Below, piece by piece: positions 1,971 to 64,000 of a stretch of DNA of 64,000 nucleotides. The stretch covers positions 8,667-72,666 of the forward strand of contig JBILMH010000001.1 in NCBI GenBank assembly GCA_044375625.1, read 5' to 3'. Origin of the DNA: Alphaproteobacteria bacterium (GTDB taxonomy: Bacteria; Pseudomonadota; Alphaproteobacteria; CAISOG01). The position numbers and the translations under genes are program-made. The first letter of the stretch is position 1. The number at the start of each line of letters is the position of its first letter. Below the pieces are notes generated by a model. It had not been told where the DNA came from, ran no database searches, and saw only the letters and a list, made by a program, of their open reading frames with translations.

Positions 1971-2306
1971 TTACAGCGCGGCATCCTGTGGCTGATATTG
2001 GTACGGGGGGCGCTGTTTGATGGTGCGCTTAATTTCTTCCTCGATTTGCTCGCTAGCCAGATCAAGTTCATAGCGTTTTTGCAGGTTCATCCAAAAGGCG
2101 GCGGAAACCCCAAGCCATTGTTGCAGGCGAAGGGCGGTGTCGGCCGTCATGGAGCGTTTGCCAGCCAGCAACTGATAAATCCGATTGGCGGGCACATGCA
2201 GCTCCCGCGCCAGCTCGGCTGGTGACATGTTCAGCTCGGCCAGCTCATCACCCAGGATGGTGCCAGGGTGGATTGGGTAGATGGGTCGTTTTTCTGGTGC
2301 GGTCAT
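1971..2306 (-). CDS. higA: HigA-family antitoxin (XRE-type HTH, addiction module antidote)
   Basis: HTH region …MSPAELARELHVPANRIYQLLAGKRSMTADTALRL…, lying directly downstream of a HigB-like ORF. Confidence 0.8.
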   Translation of the reverse strand: MTAPEKRPIYPIHPGTILGDELAELNMSPAELARELHVPANRIYQLLAGKRSMTADTALRLQQWLGVSAAFWMNLQKRYELDLASEQIEEEIKRTIKQRPPYQYQPQDAAL

Positions 2307-2316
2307 GTTGTTCTCC

Positions 2317-2619
2317 TTAATGGTAATCGACGATTTCGATGTTGAAGGGCTTTATGTGATCGTCAGGCCACTCAAAGCAGATGCGCCATTTTTGGTTTAT
2401 GCGGATGCTGTATTGCCCCTTACGGTTGCCGCCTAAGGCCTCAAAACGGTTGCTCGGTAACTGCATTAAGTCTTCACGGGATTGCGCATCCTCCAGAATT
2501 GCTAGGCGTTTCTTTGCTTGCTCCTCAAATCCCTGAAACGTTTTAACCCGCTCGCCCGCAACAAAAGCCGCTGTGCGCTTATCCCTACAGGAGAGTGGTT
2601 TTGGTTTATCCTCCGACAT
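2317..2619 (-). CDS. higB: HigB-family toxin (RelE/ParE superfamily, plasmid maintenance system killer)
   Basis: ~100-aa protein with the HigB-like end …WRICFEWPDDHIKPFNIEIVDYH, placed upstream of the higA-like gene in the same orientation. Confidence 0.75.
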   Translation of the reverse strand: MSEDKPKPLSCRDKRTAAFVAGERVKTFQGFEEQAKKRLAILEDAQSREDLMQLPSNRFEALGGNRKGQYSIRINQKWRICFEWPDDHIKPFNIEIVDYH

Positions 2620-3771: not shown

Positions 3772-5208
3772 ATGATGGCTATGATGAACCGATGGAATCG
3801 CCCGACAGTGGTTTTTTGCATGGCGTTGGCTTTGGCCTTTGCCACCCTGGGGCATGGCCAGATGGTGGGGCAGGCGGTGGCGCAAACCGTGCCCACCAGC
3901 CGTCAACAAGTACAGCTGAGTTTTTCCCCGATTGTTAAGCAGACTGCCCCCGCGGTGGTCAATATCTATGCCAAAAGGGTGGTTAAATCCCGCCTTAACC
4001 CGATGCTGAACGACCCGATTTTTCAAAAATTTTTCGGCAACAGTTTGATGTTTGGCCTGCCGCGTGAACGGATTGAAAATTCGTTGGGCTCTGGGGTCAT
4101 TATTCGTGCCGACGGTCAAATCGTTACCAACTATCATGTGGTGGAATCCAGTGATGAGATCACGGTGGTGTTGGCCGACCGCCGCGAATTTCCTGCCAAA
4201 GTCACTTATGGGGATAAGCGGATTGATCTGGCCTTTTTGAAAATTGAGGCTGGCAATGTGCCCTATGTGGAATTGGCGGATTCGGATGCGGCCGAGGTGG
4301 GGGATGCGGTGTTGGCCATCGGTAATCCCTTTGGCGTGGGGCAAACGGTCACGATGGGCATTATTTCTGCGTTGGCACGAACCGCGGGCGGCATTTCTGA
4401 CCTGAACTTTTTTATTCAGACCGATGCCGCCATCAACCCGGGCAACTCCGGCGGGGCGTTGGTGGATTTGAATGGGCGATTGCTGGGCATCAATACCGCC
4501 ATTTTCAGCCGTGATGGTGGATCCAACGGCATTGGATTTGCGATTCCTGCCAACATGCTGCGCGCCACTGTTGCCTCCTTAGAAAAAAATGGGCGGGTGG
4601 TGCGGCCATGGCTGGGGCTTAGTGGTCAGCCCGTCACCGCCGAAATTGCCAACAGCCTGGGGCTTAGTCGCCCGACTGGTGTGGTGGTGGCCAGGGTGGT
4701 TCGGGATGGTCCCGCCGCCACCGCTGGCCTCAAAAGCGGCGATGTGATTTACGCGGTTGAGAATAAAGAGGTTACCGATCTGGAATCCCTGCGTTTCTAT
4801 GTATCGACCGCTAAGCCCACGGGGTCGGTACGGCTGTCGATCATTCGCCAGCAACGGCAGCTTAATCTAGCCATGCCGTTGCAACCTGCGCCAGAAAATC
4901 CCCCCCGCCAGGAAACCAAGCTGGCTGGGCGTACCCCCCTGACGGGTGCCACCGTGGTCAATCTGTCGCCAGCGGTTGCCGAGGAATATGGTTTTGCCAG
5001 CGATCAGGGGGTGGCGGTGATCAAGACGGATCAGGGGACGCCCGCCGAACAGTTGGATCTGCGCGCTGGCGACATTGTGTTGGCGATCAATGGCGTGGAG
5101 GTGGATTCGGTGGCCAGCCTGCGGGATTTGGTTAAGGAGCCCAATCGCGGCTGGCAAATCACTGTTCGCCGCGGTGCCGACGTGCTGAATGTGGTGGTCA
5201 GGGGCTAG
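3772..5208 (+). CDS. degP: periplasmic serine endoprotease DegP/HtrA family (trypsin domain + 2 PDZ)
   Basis: N-terminal signal peptide, the catalytic motif GNSGGALVDLNGRLLGINTAIF, and two PDZ-like C-terminal regions. Confidence 0.9.
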   Translation: MMAMMNRWNRPTVVFCMALALAFATLGHGQMVGQAVAQTVPTSRQQVQLSFSPIVKQTAPAVVNIYAKRVVKSRLNPMLNDPIFQKFFGNSLMFGLPRERIENSLGSGVIIRADGQIVTNYHVVESSDEITVVLADRREFPAKVTYGDKRIDLAFLKIEAGNVPYVELADSDAAEVGDAVLAIGNPFGVGQTVTMGIISALARTAGGISDLNFFIQTDAAINPGNSGGALVDLNGRLLGINTAIFSRDGGSNGIGFAIPANMLRATVASLEKNGRVVRPWLGLSGQPVTAEIANSLGLSRPTGVVVARVVRDGPAATAGLKSGDVIYAVENKEVTDLESLRFYVSTAKPTGSVRLSIIRQQRQLNLAMPLQPAPENPPRQETKLAGRTPLTGATVVNLSPAVAEEYGFASDQGVAVIKTDQGTPAEQLDLRAGDIVLAINGVEVDSVASLRDLVKEPNRGWQITVRRGADVLNVVVRG

Positions 5209-8869: not shown

Positions 8870-9047
8870 GGGATGGGGGTGGAGTAGGGCACTTTGCAAC
8901 CCTTGCCATAGCGTACAATTTTAAAAAGCTTCTGTTGACTTTATCTATTTAATAGATTATATATTTTATATGAAGCATTAATAGCATTTTTTATGAGTAA
9001 GTCTTAATATTAAAATGCATTATTGGATTAATTGATGGGTAAAAAAA

Positions 9048-9857
9048 ATGAATAAAAGTTTTTTGAACAAAAATAATGTATTAATTGTTCCAATGGAACC
9101 TAGCAAGGAACAAATAGACTGGCTTGCTTTTAGGTGGGGTCATGTTAGAGATTATGAAGAGAATTTTGATAAACCTCTTCAAGAATTCAAAAATCTACCT
9201 CCGAATACAACGCAATTGTTTGTCATGTGTATGGCAGCGGAGGGTTGGAATGTTGAAAAAGCAATTTTTCGTCTAAATGAATTTGGCATTAATGATGCAA
9301 ATGCGATCGCGGCCGCTCAAAAAGATCTAGGTTTGTGCGATAATAATAACTTATTAGATGGAAAAGCTGTAAAAATAACAATGCCGTGTTTTATAGCGGT
9401 CGATTTAGTTGCGAATTCAAAAAAACTTTTAGAAGATGCCATCAAAAAATGCCCTGACTTTTTAAAAAAAGTGGATCTAAGATGTTCCAATATGCCAAAT
9501 ACTATTTTGCGACGTGCGGATCTTACAGAGACTGATTTCGAGGGAGCAAATCTTAAAGGTGCCGATTTACGTGAAGCAAACCTAGAAAAAGCTGTTTTGT
9601 GGAAAGCAAAAATGGTTTTTGCAAGAATAGGGCGCGGTATTGTTAATTCTAAGACGAATTTTACTGGGGTAAATCTTAGTGGTGTAACCAATTTACCATG
9701 GAATCCTGAGGTCAATCGCTTTGGTTATGTGTTTGCCAGAGGGGTTGATCGTACAACACGTCAGCAGATGTATGGCGAGGATAAACTCATAGGGGGACTG
9801 TCCAACATTTTAGAGGCGGGAAATAATGTGCTTAAGGCTTTTGGCCTTAACCGTTAG
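9048..9857 (+). CDS. pentapeptide-repeat protein (unique N-terminal domain + C-terminal pentapeptide block), AT-rich island
   Basis: The C-terminal part reads …ADLTETDFEGANLKGADLREANLEKAVL…. The gene body and its upstream region are ~35% GC, far below the flanking genes. Confidence 0.7.
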   Translation: MNKSFLNKNNVLIVPMEPSKEQIDWLAFRWGHVRDYEENFDKPLQEFKNLPPNTTQLFVMCMAAEGWNVEKAIFRLNEFGINDANAIAAAQKDLGLCDNNNLLDGKAVKITMPCFIAVDLVANSKKLLEDAIKKCPDFLKKVDLRCSNMPNTILRRADLTETDFEGANLKGADLREANLEKAVLWKAKMVFARIGRGIVNSKTNFTGVNLSGVTNLPWNPEVNRFGYVFARGVDRTTRQQMYGEDKLIGGLSNILEAGNNVLKAFGLNR

Positions 9858-17758: not shown

Positions 17759-19039
17759 ATGGCCATGACCAATCAATTGACAGATATCGAAAAAAAAATC
17801 CTGGAACACGAAGCGTGGGTTGATGGAGAGGAAACAGGATCTCGTTTGGTGCTTTCTGGTCGGTCCTTAGCAAGAATCCAAATGCCTAATCGCATGCTTA
17901 AGTCGGCAAAAATGATGGGTTGTGATCTGCAAGAGGGCAATTTTGCAGGAACCGATCTAAGTTTTTCAGATTTGTTTTGTTCCAATTTGGAACGCGCCAA
18001 TTTTTCCGAAGCCAATTTGATGCGTGCCAGCATGCGTGGGGTTAAAATTCGTAACGCCAATCTACGTGGAGCCAATTTAACGGAGGCCGATTTGCGGGCG
18101 GGGGCGATTGTTCGCCATGTTAATGAGGCCGCGGAAGAGGTCAGGACGGATCTGTCGTTCAGTCGGTTGGATGACGCCGTTATGCCCAATGTTAATCTAA
18201 ATGGCGCGGATTTGCGCAATGCCATCATGACAGGTGCTAACCTTAAAGGGGCTTATCTGCGCGGATGCAACTTGAGTTCCGTGGATTTGCGTAATGCGGA
18301 TTTATCCAATGTGGACTTGTCCAATGCTGATTTAAGCTTTGCCAATCTTAAGGGGTCATCCCTAAGCTATGCTGTCATCAGTCGTACCAGTTTTGACAAC
18401 GCTGTTGTTGATAATATGGATATCACGGGCACAGTCTTTGATGATAGCGCCCCGGCTGAACTGGTTGACATGCTGCAAGATAAAAGCCGCAACCAACCCC
18501 GCAAATTGGATGAGGTGTTGGCCAACCATGTGCAATGGATTGATTCACAGGGTGCCAAGGGGCAGCGGGCGATATTGGTCAAACGGGATCTTAGTAGTTT
18601 TGATTTGAATCATGTCAATCTTAGTGGGGCTGATTTACAAGAAGTTTTACTAATTGAGGCCAATTTGTTCCGTGCACTTTTGGTCATGACGAATCTTAGT
18701 GCCGCCAACTTGCGGGATGCCAATCTGTCCAAAGCCAATTTGGCTGGTGCCAATTTAACAGGTGCTGACCTTAGCCATGCCGATCTTAGAGATGCTGTTC
18801 TTAAGGCTATCATTTCGCGTGCCAGTAGTGCGCTCCCAGGTTCCAAATTGTGGCCAACCAACCTTAGCAATGCCAGGTTGGTGAACAGCAATCTTAATGG
18901 CGTGAATTTGACGGGGGCAAACCTGGCTGGTGCTGACCTTCGGGGAGCCAGCCTGCGTCGCGCCGTGCTTATAGGTGCCAATCTGACGGGGGCTAATATC
19001 GATAAAGCCGACTTCACCGATGCCATTTTGAAACAATAG
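17759..19039 (+). CDS. pentapeptide-repeat protein (426 aa), paralog of 53353..54723
   Basis: Long runs of A(D/N)LxxANLxGADLxxA…, with a central non-repeat linker (HVQWIDSQGAKGQRA). GC is lower than the flanks. Confidence 0.8.
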   Translation: MAMTNQLTDIEKKILEHEAWVDGEETGSRLVLSGRSLARIQMPNRMLKSAKMMGCDLQEGNFAGTDLSFSDLFCSNLERANFSEANLMRASMRGVKIRNANLRGANLTEADLRAGAIVRHVNEAAEEVRTDLSFSRLDDAVMPNVNLNGADLRNAIMTGANLKGAYLRGCNLSSVDLRNADLSNVDLSNADLSFANLKGSSLSYAVISRTSFDNAVVDNMDITGTVFDDSAPAELVDMLQDKSRNQPRKLDEVLANHVQWIDSQGAKGQRAILVKRDLSSFDLNHVNLSGADLQEVLLIEANLFRALLVMTNLSAANLRDANLSKANLAGANLTGADLSHADLRDAVLKAIISRASSALPGSKLWPTNLSNARLVNSNLNGVNLTGANLAGADLRGASLRRAVLIGANLTGANIDKADFTDAILKQ

Positions 19040-20311: not shown

Positions 20312-21670
20312 ATGATTGCCAAACTTTTGATTGCCAACCGTGGGGAAATCGCCCTGCGTATCCATCGCGCCGCTAAGGAGCTGGGTATGGCAACCGTTGC
20401 CGTCCATTCCACCGCGGACGCCGATGCCATGCATGTGCGGTTGGCGGATGAAAGCGTTTGCATCGGCCCCGCCGCCAGTAAGGATAGCTACCTGAATATG
20501 CCAGCGATCCTGTCGGCGGCCGCCATCACGGGGGCGGATGCCATTCACCCTGGCATTGGCTTTTTAGCCGAAAATGCCCGCTTTGCGGAGATGGTGGAGG
20601 ATCACGGCCTGATTTTTGTGGGGCCCAGCGCGGAACATATCCTGTTGATGGGCGATAAACTGACGGCTAAAGAGGCCGCAACCAAGCTGGGCATTCCGAT
20701 TGTGCCGGGCACGCCCGAACCGGTGGAGGAGGATGCGGTGGCCTTAGCCTTTGCTGAGGAGGTTGGCTATCCCGTGCTGGTGAAGGCGGCTGGTGGCGGG
20801 GGCGGTAAGGGCATGAAGGTGGTGATGACAGCTGAGGAAATGCCAGAATCGCTGTCGATTGCCCGTCGTGAGGCGCAAACCCATTTTGGCAACCCCGCGG
20901 TTTATATCGAAAAATACTTGCCCAGCCCGCGCCATATTGAGGTGCAGATTCTGGCCGATAAATTCGGCAACGCTGTCCATTTGGGGGAACGCGATTGCAG
21001 CCTGCAACGCCGCCACCAGAAGTTGTTGGAGGAGGCGCCTTCGCCCATCCTGACCCCTGAGCAGCGGGCAGAGCTGGGCACGCAATGCGTTAACGCGGTT
21101 AAGGAGCTGGGATACTACGGCGTCGGAACCTTTGAGTTTTTGTATCAGGATGGCCAGTTTTATTTCATCGAAATGAACACCAGGTTGCAGGTGGAACATC
21201 CCGTGACCGAGATGATCACCGGCATTGATTTGGTGCGCCAACAGCTGTTGGTGGCGGCTGGTGAAAAACTGCCGTTCAAACAAAAGGATATTAAATTCAC
21301 GGGGCACGCAATGGAATGCCGTTTGAACGCCGAAAACCCAATTAGCTTTGCCCCCCGTCCTGGCAAAATTAGCGATTACCATGCCCCTGGCGGCTTTGGG
21401 GTGCGGGTCGATTCGGCGCTGTACAACGGCTATAGGGTGCCCTCCCACTACGACAGTTTGGTCGCCAAGCTGATCGTCCACGGCAATGACCGCGCCACCT
21501 GCGTCGATCGGCTAAAGCGGGCATTGGGCGAATTTGTGATTCTGGGGATTGAAACCACGCTGCCGCTGTTCCAACGGCTGTTGGAGGATCCCGACTTCCT
21601 GGCCAGCAATTTTGATGTTAAATGGTTGGAGGGCTTCGTCGCCGAACTTCAGGAGAAAAAGGCGGCTTAG
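20312..21670 (+). CDS. accC: acetyl-CoA carboxylase biotin carboxylase subunit
   Basis: ATP-grasp protein starting MIAKLLIANRGEIALRI… (canonical AccC start); ~452 aa. Confidence 0.95.
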   Translation: MIAKLLIANRGEIALRIHRAAKELGMATVAVHSTADADAMHVRLADESVCIGPAASKDSYLNMPAILSAAAITGADAIHPGIGFLAENARFAEMVEDHGLIFVGPSAEHILLMGDKLTAKEAATKLGIPIVPGTPEPVEEDAVALAFAEEVGYPVLVKAAGGGGGKGMKVVMTAEEMPESLSIARREAQTHFGNPAVYIEKYLPSPRHIEVQILADKFGNAVHLGERDCSLQRRHQKLLEEAPSPILTPEQRAELGTQCVNAVKELGYYGVGTFEFLYQDGQFYFIEMNTRLQVEHPVTEMITGIDLVRQQLLVAAGEKLPFKQKDIKFTGHAMECRLNAENPISFAPRPGKISDYHAPGGFGVRVDSALYNGYRVPSHYDSLVAKLIVHGNDRATCVDRLKRALGEFVILGIETTLPLFQRLLEDPDFLASNFDVKWLEGFVAELQEKKAA

Positions 21671-21702
21671 ATATTTGAAAAATTTTTGAAGGACGGCTGA
21701 TT

Positions 21703-22884
21703 ATGACCAGAAAAGAGCTCGAAAAGCTTTTACAGGCTGGTGAGTCTAATAAAATTGAGTTCAAAAGCAGATTCACTAAAGACAACAAATTGCCTCAGAC
21801 AATTTGCGCATTTGCTAATAATCTAGATGGTGATGGCAAACCTGGATATATCATTATTGGCATCAATAATGATAAAACATTTAGTGGATTGCGTGATACC
21901 GATCAAATACAAACGACAATTGCTGAATATCGTTCAAACGCTAACATTAATCCGTTGCCATCTATAAGTGTACAACTCATCTCATGTGACGAGGGTGATG
22001 TGCTGGTAGTAAAAGTAGAGCCTTCATCAACCCCACCTCTACGCTATGAAGGGGTGGTATGGGTTAGAACGGGATCCAGCACTAGGAGGGCAAATCCAGA
22101 AGATGAACGTCGGCTTTCAGAGAAACGAACATCTTTGACAAAAACTTTTGACGCTGAGCCATGTAGAGATGCTTCTGTTGATGATCTAGCATTGCGCTTG
22201 TTTGATGAGTATCGCGGGCACGCAGTCAATTCTAGCGTTATAGCCGAGAATCATCGAAGTACCGATGAAAAATTAGCCTCTTTAAGTTTTTTTGATTTGA
22301 AAAATCAATGTCCGACTTATGCAGGGATATTATTATTTGGCACCAATATTCGGAATTTTTTACCAGGAGCTTATGTGCAATTTCTAAAGTTTTCAGGTAG
22401 TGATATTTCGGATCAACCAGAAGACATAGATGAAATCAATGGAGATTTAAGGACGCTTGTTGACAGAGTTTATGAGAAAATTCGTTCACATAATCGTGTT
22501 TCTCTGGTCAAAGGTGAACGTTTTGTAGAGAAGAATGTTCCAGAATATCCCGAATCTTCTCTGCGAGAATTTTTGAATAATGCTATTATACATCGTGATT
22601 ATCAATCAAATACTCCAATTCGGTTTTATTGGTATGAAGATCGCATAGAAATTTCAAGTCCTGGTGGTCTTTATCCTCCTGTAACTTATGATAAAATTGA
22701 AAAAAGGACTGGCTATAGAAATCCAATTGTTGCAAATGCGATGAAAGAGCTGGGGTATGTCGAAAAATTTGGCCGTGGCATTCAGACTGCTCAAAAAGCA
22801 CTGCAGGATAATGGTAACCCAGCAGCAGAGATTGCAAGAGAAGAAGGGTTTTTTCAGGTGACAATTTATAGGCGGGAATCATGA
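21703..22884 (+). CDS. AlbA_2 (Schlafen-like divergent AAA) + HATPase_c_4 domain protein (often annotated as putative transcriptional regulator / RecG-C-like)
   Basis: N-terminus …ESNKIEFKSRF…ICAFANNLDGDGKPGYIIIGINND… (AlbA_2). C-terminus …REFLNNAIIHRDYQSN…IEISSPGGLYPP…YRNPIVANAMKELGYVEKFGRGI (HATPase_c_4). GC is ~40%. Confidence 0.7.
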   Translation: MTRKELEKLLQAGESNKIEFKSRFTKDNKLPQTICAFANNLDGDGKPGYIIIGINNDKTFSGLRDTDQIQTTIAEYRSNANINPLPSISVQLISCDEGDVLVVKVEPSSTPPLRYEGVVWVRTGSSTRRANPEDERRLSEKRTSLTKTFDAEPCRDASVDDLALRLFDEYRGHAVNSSVIAENHRSTDEKLASLSFFDLKNQCPTYAGILLFGTNIRNFLPGAYVQFLKFSGSDISDQPEDIDEINGDLRTLVDRVYEKIRSHNRVSLVKGERFVEKNVPEYPESSLREFLNNAIIHRDYQSNTPIRFYWYEDRIEISSPGGLYPPVTYDKIEKRTGYRNPIVANAMKELGYVEKFGRGIQTAQKALQDNGNPAAEIAREEGFFQVTIYRRES

Positions 22885-23918
22885 AGATTGTTGCATTTTT
22901 TAACAACAAAGGTGGGGTAGGTAAAACAACCCTTGTTTACCATTTAGCCTGGATGTTTTCGCGTAAAAAAATTAAGACACTGGCGGTTGATTTGGATCCG
23001 CAAGCTAATCTGACGGCTATGTTTCTGAAGGAGGAACAATTAGGAGAAATTTGGCCAGATGGTGAGCATCCTAAAACCATTTATGGTGCTATCCGTCCGC
23101 TTACCAAGGGAACTGGTGATGTTCTTGATAATCCGCATGTGGAAGAAATACCAGATGTTATTCTCGATATTCTACATGTGGAAGAAATAGCGGAGTCTTC
23201 TTTAGGTTTAATTCCTGGAGATCTAGGGTTATCGCTTTTTGAAGATAAATTGTCAGAATCTTGGCCTAAATGTCATAATGGAGATGAGTCAGCTTTTCGC
23301 ACCATGACGGCTTTTTACCGTATTATTGAAAAAGCTGCTAAAGGATATGATTTGGTGCTGGTTGATATAGGTCCGAATTTGGGAGCAATCAACCGATCCG
23401 CTCTTATTTCCTGCGACCACGTTGTGTTGCCCTTGGCGGCGGATTTGTATTCGTTGCAAGGACTAAAAAACTTAGGGCCAACGTTGCGAAGTTGGCGCAA
23501 GACCTGGGGGGAGTTAAAGTCTAAAGCTCCAGGTGATTTGTCATATCCTAGTGGCGATATGAAACCAGCTGGATATGTGGTGATGCAACATGGCGCCAGA
23601 AAGGATCGTCCAGTTAAGGCTTACGATCGTTGGATGGCCAAAATTCCTGAAGTCTATCGGAAGTTTATTTTGGCCGAAGAAAACCCTAACGAGACCATAA
23701 CCGTTAACGACGATCCGTATAAATTGGCTACACTTAAGCACTATCACAGCTTAATGCCATTGGCACAGCAGTCACATAAGCCAATGTTTGATTTGAAACC
23801 TGCTGATGGAGCCATTGGTTCTCATGTTGAGTCAGTACAGGGTTGTTATCGCGATTTTGAAGCTTTGGCGAAAAGATTGGCACAAGAGATCGAATTGGTA
23901 TGGCCAGATGGTGCCTAG
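22881..23918 (+). CDS. ParA/Soj-like deviant Walker-A ATPase (AAA_31/CbiA family) with ~120-aa C-terminal extension
   Basis: N-terminal MKIVAFFNNKGGVGKTTL… and DLDPQANLT. The start overlaps the upstream stop (ATGA), and the gene is in the same low-GC island. Confidence 0.7.
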   Translation: MKIVAFFNNKGGVGKTTLVYHLAWMFSRKKIKTLAVDLDPQANLTAMFLKEEQLGEIWPDGEHPKTIYGAIRPLTKGTGDVLDNPHVEEIPDVILDILHVEEIAESSLGLIPGDLGLSLFEDKLSESWPKCHNGDESAFRTMTAFYRIIEKAAKGYDLVLVDIGPNLGAINRSALISCDHVVLPLAADLYSLQGLKNLGPTLRSWRKTWGELKSKAPGDLSYPSGDMKPAGYVVMQHGARKDRPVKAYDRWMAKIPEVYRKFILAEENPNETITVNDDPYKLATLKHYHSLMPLAQQSHKPMFDLKPADGAIGSHVESVQGCYRDFEALAKRLAQEIELVWPDGA

Positions 23919-23936
23919 TATTGAGTTATAACCCCC

Positions 23937-24539
23937 ATGCCCATTTCTGACCAAAGCTTGCTGTTGCATGCCTATCGTCGTGGGTTTTTCCCAATGGCTA
24001 AGGGGCGGGAGGAGTCAGAGATTTATTGGGTTGCCCCCGATCGGCGCGGCATCATTCCGTTGGATAGCTTCCACATTCCGCACAGCCTGCGCAAATTTCT
24101 GAAGCACAGCGGCTTTCACTACAGCATCAATCAGGCGTTTGAGACGGTGTTGTTATCCTGCGCTGCGCCGCGCGCAAAACAGCCCGACAGTTGGATTAAC
24201 CCGGCGATTGCCGCCCTGTATCGGGATCTTTGGCAGCGCGGCTTTGCCCATAGTGTAGAGGTTTGGCAGGGGGCGGTGGGGGAACAGCTGGTCGGTGGGT
24301 TATACGGCGTGGCGATGGGGGCGGCGTTTTTTGGCGAAAGCATGTTTAGCCGTCAAACCAATGCCAGCAAGGCGGCGTTGGTAGAGCTGGTACGGCACCT
24401 AAACGAACGCGGATTTCGCCTGTTGGATGCCCAATTCTATACCCCCCATTTAGGGCAGTTCGGCGCGCAGGAAATTGACCAGGCCGACTATCTGGTTCTG
24501 TTGGACGACGCCTTAGCCCGTGACGCACGTTTTGTTTAG
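23937..24539 (+). CDS. aat: leucyl/phenylalanyl-tRNA--protein transferase
   Basis: …RGFFPMAKG…WVAPDRRGIIPLD…LVGGLYGVAMGAAFFGESMFSRQTNASKAALV… (Aat signatures). Confidence 0.85.
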   Translation: MPISDQSLLLHAYRRGFFPMAKGREESEIYWVAPDRRGIIPLDSFHIPHSLRKFLKHSGFHYSINQAFETVLLSCAAPRAKQPDSWINPAIAALYRDLWQRGFAHSVEVWQGAVGEQLVGGLYGVAMGAAFFGESMFSRQTNASKAALVELVRHLNERGFRLLDAQFYTPHLGQFGAQEIDQADYLVLLDDALARDARFV

Positions 24540-35231: not shown

Positions 35232-35335
35232 TGGGGTGATAAAAAAATTCCCCAAATGTTCATTGTGTACAAACAAACAAAATGGTACAATTGCCCTTGG
35301 GTCAAACAAAATATTGTTTGTTGGAAAGGTGTGAC

Positions 35336-35605
35336 ATGAGCCGTATATCAATTGAAGTAAGTCCAGAGCAGCACCAACGCCTTAAGGCTTTTGCTGCTTT
35401 GCGCGGTGAAACTATCAAAGATTACATTTTGGGCTGTGCCTTGCCGCCATCAGCGTCTGCAGAGGTTTTGACGGAGGAACAGGCCTTGCAAGAGCTTGAG
35501 CAACTATTGCTTCCTCGTGTTGAAGCGATTAAACGCGGCGAGATCAGTGCCAAAAGCTTTGAGGAAATTATCGCCGAAGCACGCAATGAGGCGGCAGCGT
35601 TGTGA
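35336..35605 (+). CDS. parD: type II antitoxin, ParD/RHH-like
   Basis: Small protein MSRISIEVSPEQHQRLKAFAALRGETIKDYIL (ribbon-helix-helix-like) overlapping the downstream toxin. Confidence 0.6.
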   Translation: MSRISIEVSPEQHQRLKAFAALRGETIKDYILGCALPPSASAEVLTEEQALQELEQLLLPRVEAIKRGEISAKSFEEIIAEARNEAAAL

Positions 35606-35913
35606 AACCTTTTTGCATTTCTGTTGCAGCTGAAAAAGATTTAAAACAGATTTGGCGATATACCGCTCAACATTATGGTATATTGCAAGCGGATTTATAT
35701 ACTAATGTTCTGCTGTTAGGGTGTCAAAAAATCGCCCAGCAACCGTTGGTCTTTCTCTCTCTTAGATTGGCCAACCAAGATTTTAGAGTGTATCGATATA
35801 AGAATCATTATATTTTGTATTTAGTTGCTGATGATAAGGTTGTAATTGTTGCATTTTTTCATGAGCGCATGGATATAATGGTTCGACTAAGAGCAAGGTT
35901 AGAAAATAGTTAA
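35602..35913 (+). CDS. parE: type II toxin, ParE/RelE family
   Basis: 103 aa. The start overlaps the antitoxin stop (GTGA). Typical ParE layout (…AEKDLKQIWRYTAQHYG…VYRYKNHYILYLVADDKVVIVAFFHERMD); lower GC. Confidence 0.7.
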   Translation: MKPFCISVAAEKDLKQIWRYTAQHYGILQADLYTNVLLLGCQKIAQQPLVFLSLRLANQDFRVYRYKNHYILYLVADDKVVIVAFFHERMDIMVRLRARLENS

Positions 35914-42553: not shown

Positions 42554-42619
42554 TAATAGTTATCAGTTGTGCAATAATAATCGATATGAAAACGGTGCAT
42601 GGTGCTGAGGGGGGTAGCA

Positions 42620-42883
42620 ATGGCGGGAAGTTATGAGCTGGGCAGTCAGCTTAGCCTATTTGTTGATGATCTGGTGGCAGCGGGGCGCTACAATTCCAAA
42701 AGTGAGGTGGTTCGTCAGGGGTTGCGCCTGCTGCAGGAGCGGGAGCAGTTGCGGCAGATTAAACTGGATGAGGTGCGAAAAGCCTTTCAGGAAGGCATTA
42801 ACAGTAGTCGGGGCAACACGGCTGAGGCGGTGTTTGATCGGTTAGAGGCCAAATATGCGGCGATGATCGCGGTCAGCGATTGA
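42620..42883 (+). CDS. parD: type II antitoxin ParD (COG3609-like)
   Basis: …LSLFVDDLVAAGRYNSKSEVVRQGLRLLQERE… is a classic ParD fold sequence, overlapping the downstream ParE. Confidence 0.8.
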   Translation: MAGSYELGSQLSLFVDDLVAAGRYNSKSEVVRQGLRLLQEREQLRQIKLDEVRKAFQEGINSSRGNTAEAVFDRLEAKYAAMIAVSD

Positions 42884-43188
42884 TGCTTCCCGTTGTTTTT
42901 TCACACAGGGCGGCTGATGATTTAGAGGCGATTGCCGATTTCATCGCACAGGATACCCCCGCCCGTGCCGTAGCGTTTTTGCAGAAGTTGCGTCAGCAAT
43001 GTCTGAACATCGGGCGTTTTCCGAACGCGCAGCCCCGTTTTCCTGAATTGGGGGATCGGGCGCGGGTCATGCCCTACAAAAACTATGTGGTGCTGTACCA
43101 GGTTTTGGACGATGCGGTTTCGATCGAACGGATTATCCATGGGGCAAGAGATATCCTAAGCCTGATTCATCATGACGGATCCACTTAG
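42880..43188 (+). CDS. parE: type II toxin ParE
   Basis: 102 aa, …AADDLEAIADFIAQDTPARAVAFLQKLRQQCLNIGRFPNAQPRFPELGDRARVMPYKNYVVLYQVLDDAVSIERIIHGARD; ATGA overlap with parD. Confidence 0.8.
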   Translation: MMLPVVFSHRAADDLEAIADFIAQDTPARAVAFLQKLRQQCLNIGRFPNAQPRFPELGDRARVMPYKNYVVLYQVLDDAVSIERIIHGARDILSLIHHDGST

Positions 43189-53352: not shown

Positions 53353-54723
53353 TTGTTGCTGGGGAAATCGATGGCTGGTTCAAAACATTCGGTGTCGTCA
53401 AAAGAACTGATAGCACAGATTCTTAGCCATAACAGTTGGCTTGCAGGGCGGGCAGGATCCAGAGCCAATCTGTCGTTGATGGATCTAAGTGGTTTGGGGC
53501 TAAGTTCCATCAACCTTAGTCAGGCTAAGATGGATGGCGCCAACCTGACCAGCGCGCTGTTGGTGGAAACCAACCTTAGCCAGGCCGATTTGTTTGCATC
53601 GAATCTAACAGGCTGTGATCTTAGGCAGGCAAAATTGGTTGATACCAATCTGCGTGGCGCCGTGTTGTATAAGGCGGATCTTCGCCGGGCGGATCTAACG
53701 CGGATAGATTTGCGTCCAGGAGCTTTTTTAACCCATTTTTCTAAAAAACAGGCAGCGAAGGAGAAACCCTCAGCATCGAACAAAATTTCTGAACCCGTTG
53801 CGAATTTGCAGCGGGCAAAGCTGGATGATGCCCTGATGGTTGATGCTTTGCTTTGTTACGCCGATTTTAACGGCGCATCGTTGCAGCGTATCAATTTAAC
53901 TGGTGCTGATTTAACCGGTGCAGACCTTAGCAATGCTGACCTTACGGGTGCCTGTTTGCGTAACGTCAAATTGGCTCAAGCCCGCATTCATAATACGATT
54001 CTGCGTAACGCCGACCTTACAGGCGTGCTGATATCCGATGAACAGCTACAAGCGATGGATCTTTTTGGCGCTTATGCAAGATTGCCTGTAGTGGGTAAAC
54101 AATTGGCTGTCGAAGAATCGGATGTCGATATTTCAGAAAAAATTCTTCGTAGCCTAAGCGTGAATTTGCAAGATTGTATTAGGCAGCATGAGCAATGGGT
54201 TCAGTCGGGGGGTGTGCATGGCAAGCGTGCTGATCTTTCTAACCAAAACCTTCAGGCACTTAGATTGGATTCATTGAATTTAACAGGTGCAAAGCTGGCC
54301 AATTGCCAATTGCAATCTGCCAGTTTGGTTAAAGCCGTCTTAACCATTGCCGATCTGCGCGGAGCTGTTTTGTGTGATGCCGTGCTGGAGGATGCGATGC
54401 TGGAGGGCAGCAATTTATCGGGCGCGAATCTTAAGGGGGCAAATCTTAAGGGGGCGCGCCTAGCCAGCAATGCCCATCGGGCAACCAACCTTTCCAACGC
54501 CAATTTGCAGCATGCGGATTTAAGCGGCGCTGACCTTAGTCATACCAATTTAAGAAATGCCGATCTTCGCAATACCAATTTGGCGCGCACCAATTTGTCG
54601 GGTGCAGACCTTAGTGATGCAAACCTTAGCGATACATTGTTGGATAAAGCGGTTTTGAATGGCGCCATTCTGGACAATGCCAAATTTGGTCTTAGTGAAT
54701 CCATGGCCGCCATCATCAGCTAA
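53353..54723 (+). CDS. pentapeptide-repeat protein (456 aa), paralog of 17759..19039
   Basis: Extensive A(D/N)LxxxNLxGA repeats and a central linker HEQWVQSGGVHGKRADL resembling the HVQWIDSQGAKGQRA linker of the other copy. GC is lower than the flanks. Confidence 0.8.
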   Translation: MLLGKSMAGSKHSVSSKELIAQILSHNSWLAGRAGSRANLSLMDLSGLGLSSINLSQAKMDGANLTSALLVETNLSQADLFASNLTGCDLRQAKLVDTNLRGAVLYKADLRRADLTRIDLRPGAFLTHFSKKQAAKEKPSASNKISEPVANLQRAKLDDALMVDALLCYADFNGASLQRINLTGADLTGADLSNADLTGACLRNVKLAQARIHNTILRNADLTGVLISDEQLQAMDLFGAYARLPVVGKQLAVEESDVDISEKILRSLSVNLQDCIRQHEQWVQSGGVHGKRADLSNQNLQALRLDSLNLTGAKLANCQLQSASLVKAVLTIADLRGAVLCDAVLEDAMLEGSNLSGANLKGANLKGARLASNAHRATNLSNANLQHADLSGADLSHTNLRNADLRNTNLARTNLSGADLSDANLSDTLLDKAVLNGAILDNAKFGLSESMAAIIS

Positions 54724-60624: not shown

Positions 60625-62067
60625 TTAGGGTTGTGCCGATGGTGACGACGATGCGTTAGGCTTGGCCACTGGGGATGCGCCATTCACTTGCTGGAATTTC
60701 GACAAACCCCGCAACAGATCGACAGCCCGTGACAGCTGATAATCCTCAGCATCCTTGGCACCGCTGTTATCCTGGGCGGCGGGCGCATCGTCAGCGGGCG
60801 TCGCCTTGCTGGCACCGCTATCTTTGCTATCACCCTTGCTATCCCCTTTGCTACCGCCCTCTTTCGGCTGATTTTTCAGCTGATCGTTGTTGAGGGCGCC
60901 TGGCAAATCGGCTTCGCGTTTGCGTTTGGATTCATCCATCAATTCCACCTTGGCGGGCGGAACGGTGATGTCTGGCTCAATCCCCGTGTTTTGAATCGAA
61001 CGGCCAGATGGGGTGTAGTAGCGGGCGGTCGTCAACCGCATGGCACCATGACCGGGCAGGGGGATAACGGTTTGCACCGAACCCTTACCAAAAGATTTGC
61101 TGCCCACCACCACGGCGCGATGATGATCCTGCAACGCGCCCGCCACAATTTCGGCGGCGGATGCGGAACCGCCGTTAATCAACACCACCATGGGAACATT
61201 CGGGAACAGTTCGCCCGTTTTGGCAAAAAAGCGTTGCCCTTCCTCTTTTTTACGGCCACGGGTCGACACAATCTCCCCCGCGTCCAAAAAGTCATCCGAC
61301 ACGCTGACCGCCTGATCCAACAGGCCGCCAGGATTGTTGCGCAGATCCAGCACCAAACCGGTCAGGCCATTTTTGTTGGCATGTTTCAGCTCTTCAGCAG
61401 CCTTTCTGATCCCAACCTCAGTCTGTTCATTAAAGACGGTTACGCGCAGATAGCCAACATCCTGAATCATGCGGGAACGCACCGACACAATTTTGATGAC
61501 CGCGCGGGTCAGGGTGACATCAAAAGGTTCCTTGGTACCACGACGAATGCTAAGTTTAATCGCGCTGCCCGGTTGGCCACGCATTTTCTCCACCGCGTCG
61601 TTCAACCCCATCCCCATCACGGGTTGACCATCCAGGTGGGTAATCAGGTCGCCAGGTTGCAAGCCAGCCTTAGCCGCGGGGGTATCATCAATCGGCGACA
61701 CCACCTTAACCAGGCCGTTATCCTGTGTGACTTCCAGGCCTAACCCCCCAAAGCTGCCACGGGTTTGCACCTGCATGTCACGAAAATCGTCTTCGTTCAT
61801 ATAGCTGGAATGGGGATCCAGGGATACCAACATGCCGTTGATGGCGTTTTCCATCAATTTCTTATCGGTTACTTCCTCAACGTAATCATCCCGCACCTTA
61901 TTGTACACATCGCCAAACAGGTTCAGTTGTTCGTACAAATCGGCATTGCCGGTGGTGGGCGTTTTGGCGGGCGTTTCGGCCGCCGCCGCGGGTTGGATAG
62001 CCAGACCATTAACCAGACCAAGAAACAGCACAAGAAACAAAAGATTCGATTTCACGATTACACTCAC
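60625..62067 (-). CDS. ctpA: carboxy-terminal processing protease (S41A)
   Basis: PDZ domain plus the S41 catalytic region (…VVLINGGSASAAEIVAGALQDHHRAVVVG…). Confidence 0.9.
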   Translation of the reverse strand: MSVIVKSNLLFLVLFLGLVNGLAIQPAAAAETPAKTPTTGNADLYEQLNLFGDVYNKVRDDYVEEVTDKKLMENAINGMLVSLDPHSSYMNEDDFRDMQVQTRGSFGGLGLEVTQDNGLVKVVSPIDDTPAAKAGLQPGDLITHLDGQPVMGMGLNDAVEKMRGQPGSAIKLSIRRGTKEPFDVTLTRAVIKIVSVRSRMIQDVGYLRVTVFNEQTEVGIRKAAEELKHANKNGLTGLVLDLRNNPGGLLDQAVSVSDDFLDAGEIVSTRGRKKEEGQRFFAKTGELFPNVPMVVLINGGSASAAEIVAGALQDHHRAVVVGSKSFGKGSVQTVIPLPGHGAMRLTTARYYTPSGRSIQNTGIEPDITVPPAKVELMDESKRKREADLPGALNNDQLKNQPKEGGSKGDSKGDSKDSGASKATPADDAPAAQDNSGAKDAEDYQLSRAVDLLRGLSKFQQVNGASPVAKPNASSSPSAQP

Positions 62068-62525
62068 TTAGTGGAACAATTCACCCCAGCGCCGACAGCG
62101 CCAAGCCAACCTTATTTTCAGAACGACAGGCCAGCTTTGATGTCATAGCTTAACACAACGCATTTGGGTAGTCATTCTTTACCGCGTCATCATCATAAAC
62201 AACCGTTAAAATTCCTTTAAGATTGTTTGTTTTTGTTTTGTTGGTGCTGCCCTGTTATCGTATAAAAATTGTCGATCATGGTTGGCCATGATTCCCCGCT
62301 GTTTTGGGGCAGGATGGGGACAGGATGGTTGGGTAGTCGTCTCCAACCCCGTCTTAAATCCTAATGATTTTTCGAAGATCTGATATGTAATAGTAAATGA
62401 TAAAAAAAATTACAATAAAAAATTCACGGAAAAGTCGGTTACTTAATAATTAGTGCTTTTTTAAATATAAAAAGGGGCTGAAACCTAACATAAGAAAGGA
62501 ATTTTATTAGGTGTCATCCCCAAAT

Positions 62526-63197
62526 TTATCTTAAATTCGTATTTCTGAATTGTCCGACATTCCATTCAATTTGAGTGTTTTGTGCTGATGCAGCTTGGCG
62601 TTTTTGTGCTTTTCTTAAGCCTTCTTCATCCAAGGCATTAACATAGGTTTTTGAATCCAAAGTAGTAATAAAAGCTTGTCTAGCTGCCTCATCATTATAA
62701 ATAGCAAATTGCACATTCATTTTTCCACCTGCGAGACTAAATTGATGCAACGCAGACATCATTGTTCTGGCTGACTGTTCATCGGTAAGTTCGCCCAAAA
62801 AGCCTGTTCCCATAGCAGGTACAGCAATAGATTGAAGTTGGTGTTCTTCTGCAATTTTTAAAGCATTATAGAAACCTGTTTGAACAACTTTAAACTCATT
62901 GTTTTTTCCAGAACATACAGAGGCCACATGAATATGATATCTTGCGTTTCCGCCTCCCTCAGTTAACAGTACCGTCCCAAAATTCTGAGGCCCCGTTTCG
63001 CGCAAAAAGCGTCGATATAAATCTAGCCCATTTTTACCACCTGCTTTTTCTATTGCGCCTGCAACACCATCATCTGATGCCTTATCGTTGAAGTGTGGGA
63101 TTATATATGCATCAACAGCTAATCTTGTCATGCTCCCGTCGAATATCGTGACTACATTTTCTTCAACTTTTCCTTCGTGTCCAGAATAAAAGATCAT
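62526..63197 (-). CDS. macro-domain protein (ADP-ribose binding/processing), standalone, in AT-rich pocket
   Basis: Macro motifs: …VDAYIIPHFNDKASDDGVAGAIEKAGG…, …TVLLTEGGGNARYHIHVASV…, …IAVPAMGTGFLG…. GC is ~40%, with AT-rich flanks. Confidence 0.7.
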   Translation of the reverse strand: MIFYSGHEGKVEENVVTIFDGSMTRLAVDAYIIPHFNDKASDDGVAGAIEKAGGKNGLDLYRRFLRETGPQNFGTVLLTEGGGNARYHIHVASVCSGKNNEFKVVQTGFYNALKIAEEHQLQSIAVPAMGTGFLGELTDEQSARTMMSALHQFSLAGGKMNVQFAIYNDEAARQAFITTLDSKTYVNALDEEGLRKAQKRQAASAQNTQIEWNVGQFRNTNLR

Positions 63198-63285
63198 TAT
63201 TTCCTCCTTAAAAAACTATTAAAGATATAATATGCAGAAAAAGATAGGCTGTCAACCATAAATTTGCAAAATTAAATTGTAGTCG

Positions 63286-64000
63286 CTATTTATGTAATAG
63301 CACGCGGCCACTCATCTCGTCGGGAATAGGCAGATGCAGGATGGATAGCACGGTTGGGGCAACATCGGCCAGGCGGGCGGGGTTATCGGCGCTGGCTTTT
63401 TCCGCCGTTGCATAGGCGGCCTGCAAAGCAAAACGATGCTGGTCATCCACCAGGATACAGGGAACCCTGGCCATGCTGTGGCTGGTGGAGGGGGAACCAT
63501 TGGTAACCATGGTATCGGCGTTGCCATGATCGGCGACAATGATCACCACGCCGCCCTGTTGCATGGTGGCGGCCACCACCTTGCCCAATTCTGCATCCAC
63601 CCGTTCCACCGCCTCAACAGTCGCGGGCAGAACGCCGGTATGACCCACCATATCGGGGTTGGCGTAGTTGATGACCACCAGGGCATAATCGCCGCTGGCT
63701 ATACCATCAACCGCCACCTGGGTCACGCCCGCCGCCGACATCGCGGGTTTTTGATTATAGGTTTCAACATCGCGCGGTGAATCTACCAAAATCCATTGTT
63801 CCCCCTCAAAGGCCTGGCGCCGCATTCCATTGAAATAATAGGTCACATGCGGGTACTTTTCCGTTTCCGCGGTGTGCAGCTGCCGCAAGCCGCTCTTCGA
63901 CACCACCTGCGCCAGGGTATTTTCCAGCGGTGGTAGCGGTGACAGCGATGGATAGCTTTCGGTCAGCTTAAGATCCTCAGAGTACAAGGCCATGCCAACC
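63286..64000 (-). CDS. gpmI: 2,3-bisphosphoglycerate-independent phosphoglycerate mutase, C-terminal part (gene continues past window end)
   Basis: C-terminal iPGM region …GGVVIIVADHGNADTM…. The ORF is open to the window edge. Confidence 0.8.
   Translation of the reverse strand, partial: VGMALYSEDLKLTESYPSLSPLPPLENTLAQVVSKSGLRQLHTAETEKYPHVTYYFNGMRRQAFEGEQWILVDSPRDVETYNQKPAMSAAGVTQVAVDGIASGDYALVVINYANPDMVGHTGVLPATVEAVERVDAELGKVVAATMQQGGVVIIVADHGNADTMVTNGSPSTSHSMARVPCILVDDQHRFALQAAYATAEKASADNPARLADVAPTVLSILHLPIPDEMSGRVLLHK

Follow-up and report, generated by a model that had tools for sequence, protein, structure and literature searches.

A horizontally inserted orphan macro-domain gene in a freshwater alphaproteobacterium, with a candidate ADP-ribose pocket and reader-like substitutions

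The macro-domain gene that lies between gpmI and ctpA in the window, by which we mean the whole 64-kb stretch of DNA analyzed here, is strongly supported as a horizontally acquired orphan gene without a partner. Its product is predicted to bind an ADP-ribose-containing ligand in the canonical cleft, to leave it uncleaved by the MacroD mechanism, and to act stoichiometrically, a reading to which we assign a probability of roughly 0.55. Binding without MacroD-type cleavage is suggested because the pocket residues are kept and three hydrolase features are missing. The protein belongs to a rare, patchily distributed, and uncharacterized bacterial macro subfamily. Macro domains as such are already known, as are orphan macro genes and macro domains of the reader type; what is new is a coherent rare bacterial subfamily with reader-like substitutions and a C-terminal motif of its own, together with a clean single-gene insertion that documents mobility.

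An inserted segment between gpmI and ctpA

The open reading frame (ORF) spans positions 62526–63197 on the minus strand and encodes 223 amino acids, with a macro core at approximately residues 14–182 followed by a predicted C-terminal helix at residues 195–221, as judged from Pfam, AlphaFold2 (AF2), and fold matches. The initial annotation had proposed a macro fold on the strength of three motifs (GVAGAIEKAGG, TVLLTEGGGNARYHIHVASV, and IAVPAMGTGF), all of which are found in this ORF. The proposal is borne out by a match to Pfam Macro (PF01661) above the gathering threshold (E 2.8e-14, 53.5 bits, cut-off 22) and by an AF2 model with a mean pLDDT of 95 that has the canonical three-layer alpha/beta/alpha macro fold. 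The neighbors are also as first described. Downstream, ctpA (60625–62067, minus strand) has the CtpB_N-like, PDZ, and Peptidase_S41 domains of an S41 peptidase with PDZ; upstream, gpmI (63286–63993, minus strand) is represented by the C-terminal portion of a Metalloenzyme/iPGM protein, and the gene is complete in a metagenome contig of the same species (L001). Further downstream, beyond ctpA, we note a divergent polysaccharide deacetylase gene and then a NUDIX (RppH-like) gene. Otherwise the window encodes housekeeping functions of the usual kind, pentapeptide-repeat proteins, three small toxin-antitoxin pairs, and an island with Schlafen/AlbA_2 and ParA-like genes.

The composition of the macro gene sets it apart from this surrounding. 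At 39.3% GC, with a GC3 of 27%, it fits the ~40% GC segment noted originally, versus 55% GC for ctpA, 58% for gpmI, and a GC3 of 62–66% for these neighbors. In sliding windows the GC content is 34–42% over 62150–63350 and 55–62% on either side.

A search for CtpA relatives in one genome per species yielded 37 loci. The closest relative with usable flanks (L007) is found in a MAG labeled Alphaproteobacteria bacterium ZLKRG11, with 93–95% amino-acid identity for CtpA and 94% for GpmI; here gpmI is followed by ctpA after ~300 bp, without a macro gene. In the nucleotide alignment of the window with this locus, homology ends at 63299, within the last codons of gpmI, and restarts at 62319, with the AT-rich block ending at 62354. 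The inserted AT-rich segment, absent from L007, is placed from the L007 alignment and composition at 62354–63298 (~945 bp), with a right edge that may lie as far as 62320 (979 bp at most). The insert supplies a new 3′ end of gpmI (63286–63298, minus strand), including the stop codon, and the junction sequences show that the protein ends in RVLLHK instead of the RMLCTRSQ of L007. On the other side, 62068–62319 (~250 bp, minus strand) is the native region upstream of ctpA, which lies outside the insertion and is conserved in L007 at 79% identity. The initial annotation had described AT-rich intergenic flanks of ~450 and ~90 bp. The lengths hold (458 and 88 bp), but within the longer flank the foreign AT-rich DNA covers only the first ~170–205 bp past the stop codon (from 62320 or 62354 to 62525).

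In 28 related loci that have both genes (L007 and 27 others), gpmI adjoins ctpA, with a gap of 137–293 bp in 20 and ~1.2–1.3 kb in 8; in L010, the sole large-gap locus examined, the gap is filled by an M23 peptidase. None of the 28 junctions contains a macro gene, even at E ≤10. Conserved synteny with housekeeping YmdB/MacroD orthologues had been named as the outcome that would count against the original reading, and the absence of the gene from this conserved junction in all 28 relatives leaves that reading standing. Horizontal acquisition, one of the two origins raised at the outset, is strongly supported by the empty site in L007, the 28 junctions without a macro gene, and the foreign composition. 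Two JGI metagenome contigs from this species (L001 and L002), independent of each other, show the same arrangement as the window.

No integrase or IS element is found near the insert, and no tRNA or Rfam element marks an integration site within the window. A 10-bp direct repeat (repeat family D17) has its left copy (TATGTAATAG on the plus strand) at 63291–63300, exactly at the left junction, and its right copy 907 bp away at 62384–62393, which is 30–65 bp inside the right junction; such a repeat may arise by chance in AT-rich DNA. A target-site duplication was considered and rejected, the sequence being missing from the empty site of L007, and for the same reason the repeat is probably a chance occurrence or a microhomology scar. 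We infer insertion by illegitimate recombination. In the proposed scenario, a single-gene cassette of ~950 bp, comprising promoter, ribosome-binding site, ORF, and terminator, would have come from a lower-GC donor and entered at the 3′ end of gpmI after the freshwater alphaproteobacterial host lineage had split from its sister lineage. Low-GC alphaproteobacteria are plausible donors because in three homologous loci (L004, L043, and L044) the macro genes approximate the composition of their hosts (39–44% vs 42–47% GC).

The cassette carries candidate expression signals of its own. A sigma-70-type promoter, TTGACA-17 nt-TATTAT, is predicted by consensus match at 63227–63255 (minus strand, 11/12 consensus positions), inside the insert and ~30 nt before the start codon. 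A putative Shine-Dalgarno sequence, AGGAGG, is read at 63203–63208 (minus strand), 5 nt before the ATG. Beginning 5 nt past the stop codon, a terminator-like element (62463–62521, minus strand) consists of a hairpin at 62521–62474 followed by UUUUUAUAUUU (U-run). The hairpin has an MFE of -19.5 kcal/mol (z -3.1 vs shuffles), and it was missed by a simple pattern scan for terminators.

The insert leaves little room for a second gene, with only ~270 bp outside the ORF. Both flanks have stop codons in all six frames and no ORF; a degraded partner was sought in them by six-frame translation and by tblastx and blastn against every family locus, and none was recovered, in agreement with the initial statement that no partner gene is visible. 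Across the 64-kb window, no ADP-ribosyltransferase (ART), TIR, Sir2, or DarT was recognized when the ORF set was read and 10 unclear ORFs were scanned with Pfam.

Fold class and extent of the subfamily

When compared with reference macro domains, the window protein scored highest against macroH2A1.1 (23.5), followed by OiMacroD (22.7), PARP14 MD1-2 (22.4), PARP9 MD1 (22.0), PARP14 MD3 (21.9), and PARP9 MD2 (21.8); the scores were lower for DarG (16.1–16.2), the Thoeris ThsA Macro domain (14.2), TARG1 (13.5), and PARG (13.2). Foldseek agrees with this ranking. The best PDB sequence match of the family profile is the macro domain of Capsaspora macroH2A1.1 (E 9e-20), with PARP14 and YmdB close behind. 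Taken together, the reference comparison, Foldseek, and the PDB profile match place the protein in the MacroD/macroH2A structural group, in which it forms its own branch, and outside the DarG/TARG1, PARG, and ThsA groups. Subtyping among MacroD, DarG, and PARG-like domains had been proposed as a check in the initial annotation.

The closest likeness in structure and sequence is thus to macroH2A1.1-type readers (human and Capsaspora macroH2A1.1, PARP9 MD2, and PARP14 MD2/MD3), and the hydrolase determinants are absent from the window protein. The identity to these readers is only ~20%, however, and the window protein is a bacterial standalone single domain on a mobile cassette with no histone or PARP attached. 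It also differs in that the Asn of macroH2A and PARP9 MD2 is a Phe and in that the C-terminal motif is the family's own.

The fold comparison bears on the alternative that the gene is what is left, on the antitoxin side, of a DarTG or other ART-macro pair that has decayed, one of the two origins first suggested. Weak, partial matches to DarG models (PADLOC E 7.8e-4, NCBIfam E 6.6e-3) are what can be said for it. Against these, the fold falls outside the DarG group, no DarT or ART gene is nearby, the flanks hold no remnant, and the ALC1/TARG1-like domain with a C-terminal DarT-binding domain (~330–370 aa) that characterizes DarG is not found; we reject this origin as very improbable. Neither the GGG-X6-8-QEE signature nor the PARG-type fold of PARG-like macrodomains is present. 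Likewise, the N-terminal TM helices, adjacent ThsB TIR gene, and extra-beta Macro domain of ThsA (Macro + TM) in type II Thoeris are not what we find here.

A housekeeping O-acetyl-ADP-ribose deacetylase of the YmdB/MacroD type would fit the automatic JGI name given to P0001, and NCBIfam models of the PRK00431 type are indeed the best matches. Their scores, however, are 35–57 bits against equivalog cut-offs of 200–315 (the best is 57.4 vs 252), the equivalents of N25, D35, and Y126 are missing, and the gene is foreign in composition and neither syntenic (absent from L007 and 27 other loci) nor housekeeping. Residues, scores, and synteny effectively refute orthology, and we regard this reading as highly unlikely.

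The subfamily is rare. A word-indexed search with the protein alone returned only three clusters in 5.8 billion sequences, and a profile search raised this to 79 clusters, nearly all singletons on one contig each. Searching 1.84 billion representatives exhaustively with HMMER returned 92 matches at E <1e-30 and 563 at E <1e-10; past the bacterial family, the next-best matches were eukaryotic PARP14-like proteins with 3–6 macro domains and RRM/KH, WWE, and PARP domains. The names of the cluster members were uninformative. The signature of the subfamily is DA-Y-V-V-P-[QEH]-F ... A-S-Y-G-G-V-G-G-A ... P-A-L-G-T-G-I-I-G-x-L-T-x-E-Q-S-A, and in most of them the macro core is followed by a C-terminal motif (SY..E.G.K.FD...W..GM) that forms a long helix in the AF2 model. 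Architectures vary: there are tandem macro domains (P0080 and P0081), N-terminal signal peptides (P0080 and P0083), a giant protein (P0084, P0097), a fusion to a histidine-kinase-type ATPase (P0086), N-terminal "KCELP" extensions, and long C-terminal tails. The window protein sits on a long branch, with 43–48% identity to relatives that share 60–70% among themselves.

Pocket and catalytic positions

Residues were mapped by a gapless alignment to E. coli YmdB, with column counts taken over 44 family members. The catalytic Asn of YmdB (N25, the second N of NAAN) corresponds to Phe36, and the column is Phe in 42/44; the catalytic Asp (D35, GGGV-D-GAI) corresponds to Ala46 (Gly in 43/44); the His at position 39 corresponds to Glu50 (Ala in 33/44); and the loop-2 aromatic Y126 corresponds to Leu134 (Ile in 38/44, and I, L, M, or V in 43/44). 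The Asn, the Asp, and the loop-2 aromatic of MacroD-type hydrolases (E. coli YmdB, O. iheyensis MacroD, human MacroD1/2, and Af1521) are therefore all replaced. The description of the gene as an orphan de-ADP-ribosylase accordingly holds in its first half only: the gene is an orphan, with no neighbor shared among nine homologue contexts, and the enzymatic part is doubtful given that the three MacroD determinants are replaced in the whole subfamily.

The pocket itself is kept. Asp29, at the end of beta-2, which we take to be the Asp that contacts adenine N6 (cf. Af1521 D20, macroH2A1.1 D203, and D100 of the ThsA Macro domain), is present in 41/44 members. In loop 1, G44, V45, and G47 are invariant or nearly so. 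Loop 2 retains P127-A-x-G130-T-G132-x-x-G135, with P127 invariant and G130, G132, and G135 present in 44/44. P34 is likewise found in 44/44 members; in the alignment to Capsaspora macroH2A1.1 it matches the P of HPTN, and GVGGA matches QVGGA. We propose a standalone, cytoplasmic macro-domain product, of the MacroD/macroH2A structural group, in which Asp29 would engage the adenine N6 and the diphosphate would be held by the Gly-rich loop 1 together with the P-A-M-G-T-G-x-x-G motif of loop 2. Candidate ligands are ADP-ribose (ADPr) in free form, signals derived from it, and ADP-ribosylated macromolecules; the protein would engage them stoichiometrically, as a reader, a shield, or a sponge.

A different reading, possible but clearly less probable than noncatalytic binding, is that the protein is an active ADP-ribosyl hydrolase with noncanonical residues, serving as an orphan antidote to foreign ARTs (DarT-like enzymes, interbacterial toxins, or phage ARTs) that modify DNA, RNA, or protein. 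In its favor, coronavirus Mac1 and PARP14 MD1 are active without the MacroD Asp, and PARP14 MD1 reads GGLAAAL in our alignment. Loop 1 is Gly-rich, intact, and flexible; a polar Q/E/H35 is conserved beside the missing Asn, for which it might compensate; and the catalytic loop of the window protein has the additional residues N37, D38, D42, and D43. Against hydrolysis stand the Phe found in 42/44 members in place of an Asn that all characterized MacroD/Mac1-type erasers need, the aliphatic residue in place of the ribose-positioning aromatic in 43/44, the presence of the noncatalytic macroH2A1.1 among the best sequence and fold matches, and the lack of an ART in the window or the nine other contexts. 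Precedents for ADPr hydrolases that resemble orphan antitoxins and sit on mobile elements are nevertheless established and include phage NADAR and DarG-like proteins (PMC11825919; PMC13309987).

Work on PARP9 names three determinants that separate erasers from readers: the Asn used in catalysis, flexibility of the Gly loop, and an aromatic side chain that sets the position of the distal ribose, with Mac1 F132 and PARP9 MD1 F244 as the loop-2 counterparts of YmdB Y126 (bioRxiv 10.64898/2026.08.12.744356). The present family lacks two of these three determinants, so a noncatalytic reader is the better supported, though not secure, assignment. The unusually Gly-rich loop 1 of the family counts against it. 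Very few changes can turn a reader into an eraser, which favors the hydrolase reading; in PARP9 MD2, exchanging one Pro for Gly is enough to give weak RNA de-MARylase activity (bioRxiv 10.64898/2026.08.12.744356). The boundary between reader and eraser is thin, and sequence alone cannot decide it.

The window protein also departs from its own family. Loop 1 reads SDDGVAGAIEK versus SYGGVGGAVAR in the family, and loop 2 reads GTGFLG versus GTGIIG; the family-invariant loop residues changed in this protein alone are Y42D, G43D, G46A, A50E, and I133F. The acidic additions together with N37-D38 in loop 1 could reflect either restored catalysis or decay. These changes, the long branch, and the fact that all three nucleotide differences from the genes in L001 and L002 are non-synonymous lend some weight to the view that the gene is a passenger, currently functionless, brought in with foreign DNA that was fixed by chance and left under relaxed constraint. 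Neofunctionalization and relaxed selection are not separable on numbers so small. In contrast, three independent assemblies all preserve an intact ORF with its promoter, ribosome-binding site, and terminator, AF2 models the protein with very high confidence, the binding residues D29, G44, V45, G47, and G130–G135 are retained, and between strains the gene is less diverged than its flanks (99.6% vs 98.3–98.4% nucleotide identity). We consider a passenger gene improbable.

Homologue contexts and a possible role in conflict

In none of the nine homologue contexts did we find a common neighbor or an ADP-ribosyltransferase gene. The most informative for mobility is a lambda-like head-tail module (L003), where a homologue 55% identical to the window protein is flanked on one side by a tail-terminator (gpU-like) gene and on the other by a probable tail-tube gene (Pfam match below threshold). 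This homologue is AT-richer than the phage (42% vs 53% GC) and occupies a classic moron position, which shows that phages can carry the gene. In a Rickettsiales MAG (L004) the homologue adjoins GGDEF, Sdh5, RelBE, and mfd genes; in L043 it follows a ParDE pair and precedes the gene for RNase R; and in L044 and L045 it sits, in the opposite orientation, between ybeY and phoH. Elsewhere it adjoins MerR-like and trypsin-like genes (L046) or a convergent GGDEF gene (L047 and L048), follows glycogen-metabolism genes (L053), or lies near glnA (the P0051 contig). INPHARED, PLSDB, and IMG/VR contained no close family members, only remote macro domains at ≤36% identity; PHROGs gave a single weak match, to a family of unknown function, and the viral structures in BFVD matched more weakly than cellular macro domains.

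Conflict based on ADP-ribose, whether in toxin action, defense, or anti-defense, is the most plausible setting for the noncatalytic binder proposed above. Hints in this direction are the phage cargo position in L003, the ParDE and RelBE neighbors, the split ybeY-phoH pair, and a distant member (P0145) that is fused to a Tad4 domain (PF25186, 40 bits, cut-off 25). Phages use Tad4 to inhibit Thoeris by plugging the TIR active site of ThsB (PMC13402655). The P0145 contig, on which the neighbors are Rpb6 and an ADP-dependent kinase, may be cellular or giant-viral. Since no family member occurs among deposited phages, plasmids, or IMG/VR sequences, the argument for a role in conflict or anti-defense draws on one phage-like contig and one distant fusion, and we suggest only tentatively that the selective value of the gene lies in shielding or sequestering ADPr-derived signals or the modifications made by toxins or defense systems.

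Several known systems offer partial parallels. Like the phage AdfN NADAR proteins and the chimallivirus DarG2-like macrodomain, the window protein is a standalone ADP-ribose-handling domain that travels as mobile cargo without a cognate toxin, and one homologue lies in a phage structural module. NADAR is a different fold, however, and DarG belongs to another macro class (ALC1/TARG1-like); moreover, these proteins are demonstrated enzymes, whereas the window protein lacks the eraser determinants and has no close relative in phage databases. The ThsA Macro domain, which binds His-ADPR noncatalytically, resembles the window protein in being a macro domain without the MacroD catalytic Asp; His-ADPR binding is a feature of ThsA. 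Tad sponges are small standalone binders of ADPr-derived signals carried as anti-defense cargo. The links of our family to such phage sponges are the homologue in the phage module and the distant Tad4 fusion, set against none in INPHARED, IMG/VR, or PLSDB and the weak PHROGs match.

A bolder extension, which we think unlikely, is that the subfamily constitutes an unrecognized class of mobile, noncatalytic bacterial macrodomains acting as stoichiometric sponges or shields for gcADPR, His-ADPR, or similar signals, or for ADP-ribosylated targets. Such proteins would be macro-fold counterparts of Tad1/Tad2-type anti-defense proteins, carried by phages and scattered as chromosomal single-gene cassettes, and their nearest outside relatives would be the reader macrodomains of the eukaryotic antiviral proteins PARP14 and PARP9.

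Macro domains are central to ADP-ribose signaling and to host-parasite conflict, and work on bacterial macro domains has focused on catalytic classes (MacroD/YmdB, DarG, PARG, and SirTM partners). The case described here is documented by an empty site in a sister genome and by a full promoter-to-terminator cassette, and it introduces a subfamily that lacks the eraser determinants and keeps the pocket. Whether its members turn out to be hydrolases or binders, the name "O-acetyl-ADP-ribose deacetylase (regulator of RNase III)" that was assigned automatically has no support in this subfamily. If they prove to be hydrolases, they would represent a new catalytic solution within the macro fold. Should they be readers or sponges, the macro fold would be added to the set of small mobile proteins known to capture signals or modifications derived from NAD, and bacterial cargo genes would be tied to the reader macrodomains found in eukaryotic antiviral PARPs.

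The gpmI and ctpA junctions

Comparison of the junction sequences with the sister genome, a MAG in which gpmI is followed by ctpA with no macro gene between them, shows that the insertion has rewritten the last codons of gpmI (window 63286-63298). The C-terminal end of GpmI reads RVLLHK followed by the stop codon, in place of the RMLCTRSQ and stop of the sister genome, and the housekeeping gene therefore terminates within foreign DNA. At the opposite side, an imperfect direct repeat of 25 nt (repeat family D3; core GACTACCCAA on the minus strand) is present at window 62164-62188 and 62329-62353, with one copy lying within the conserved ctpA leader and the other at the insert's right-hand boundary. 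This repeat may be microhomology that was used in recombination, or it may be a chance match.

The macro gene itself (window 62526-63197) differs from its counterpart in L001, a locus from another strain of the same species (4067-4738), at 3 of 672 nt, and all three differences are non-synonymous. The flanking housekeeping genes diverge by 1.6-1.7% at the nucleotide level between the same two sequences, which is more than the macro gene does. Though the counts are small, the lower divergence of the macro gene fits a scenario in which the cassette spread through the population more recently.

Possible single-gene insertions elsewhere

In two contigs of another lineage, a homologue, P0005, stands alone between ybeY and phoH, in the reverse orientation to both (L044 10001-10657, L045 7035-7691). 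These two genes are ordinarily neighbors within a single operon, and the arrangement is a second case in which the macro gene splits two housekeeping genes whose pairing is conserved. We also note that a convergent GGDEF (diguanylate cyclase) gene follows the macro gene in two different lineages (L004 958-1860, L047 8958-9992).

Two further AT-rich pockets are found within the window. The first, at 9001-9600, has a GC content of 34% and contains only one gene, an ORF on the plus strand between clpA and trpS (9048..9857) that encodes a 269-aa protein with pentapeptide repeats; a Pfam scan gave no match for its K/N-rich N-terminal half. This pocket looks like another single-gene foreign insertion. 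Pentapeptide-repeat proteins are encoded at an unusual density here, with three in 64 kb (this one and those at 17759..19039 and 53353..54723). The other pocket, a 36-41% GC island at 21601-23950 that separates accC from the housekeeping gene following it, carries two plus-strand ORFs that overlap by 4 nt, one for a Schlafen/AlbA_2 plus HATPase_c_4 protein (21703..22884) and one for a ParA/AAA_31 ATPase (22881..23918), a pair that is possibly a two-gene defense or mobile module.

Three small toxin-antitoxin-like gene pairs are also scattered among the housekeeping genes (1971..2619, 35282..35913 and 42599..43188). From a reading of their translations, we judge them to be HigBA-like and ParDE/RHH-like, and the GC content at the pair at 35.4-36.0 kb is low as well (44%).

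Domain architectures of the macro family

Eight members of the family (P0007, P0009, P0029, P0041, P0048, P0051, P0087 and P0088) form a subgroup with an N-terminal extension, which ends directly ahead of the macro core in a conserved ...(L/N)(P/S)KC(E/K)(L/I)P..MP motif. One member of this KC-motif subgroup is carried on L053, a contig from a 30% GC genome, where it adjoins GlgX/MalQ-type genes. In the distant member P0145 (L054 716-2398), the macro domain is fused to a Tad4 (type I Thoeris inhibitor) domain. Because an Rpb6-like RNA polymerase subunit and an ADP-dependent sugar kinase adjoin P0145, the L054 contig may derive from an archaeon, a eukaryote or a giant virus instead of a phage.

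Some family members (P0080, P0083) have clear N-terminal signal peptides, and one of them has two tandem macro domains. At least part of this family therefore acts outside the cytoplasm, a surprising location for a domain linked to NAD/ADP-ribose.
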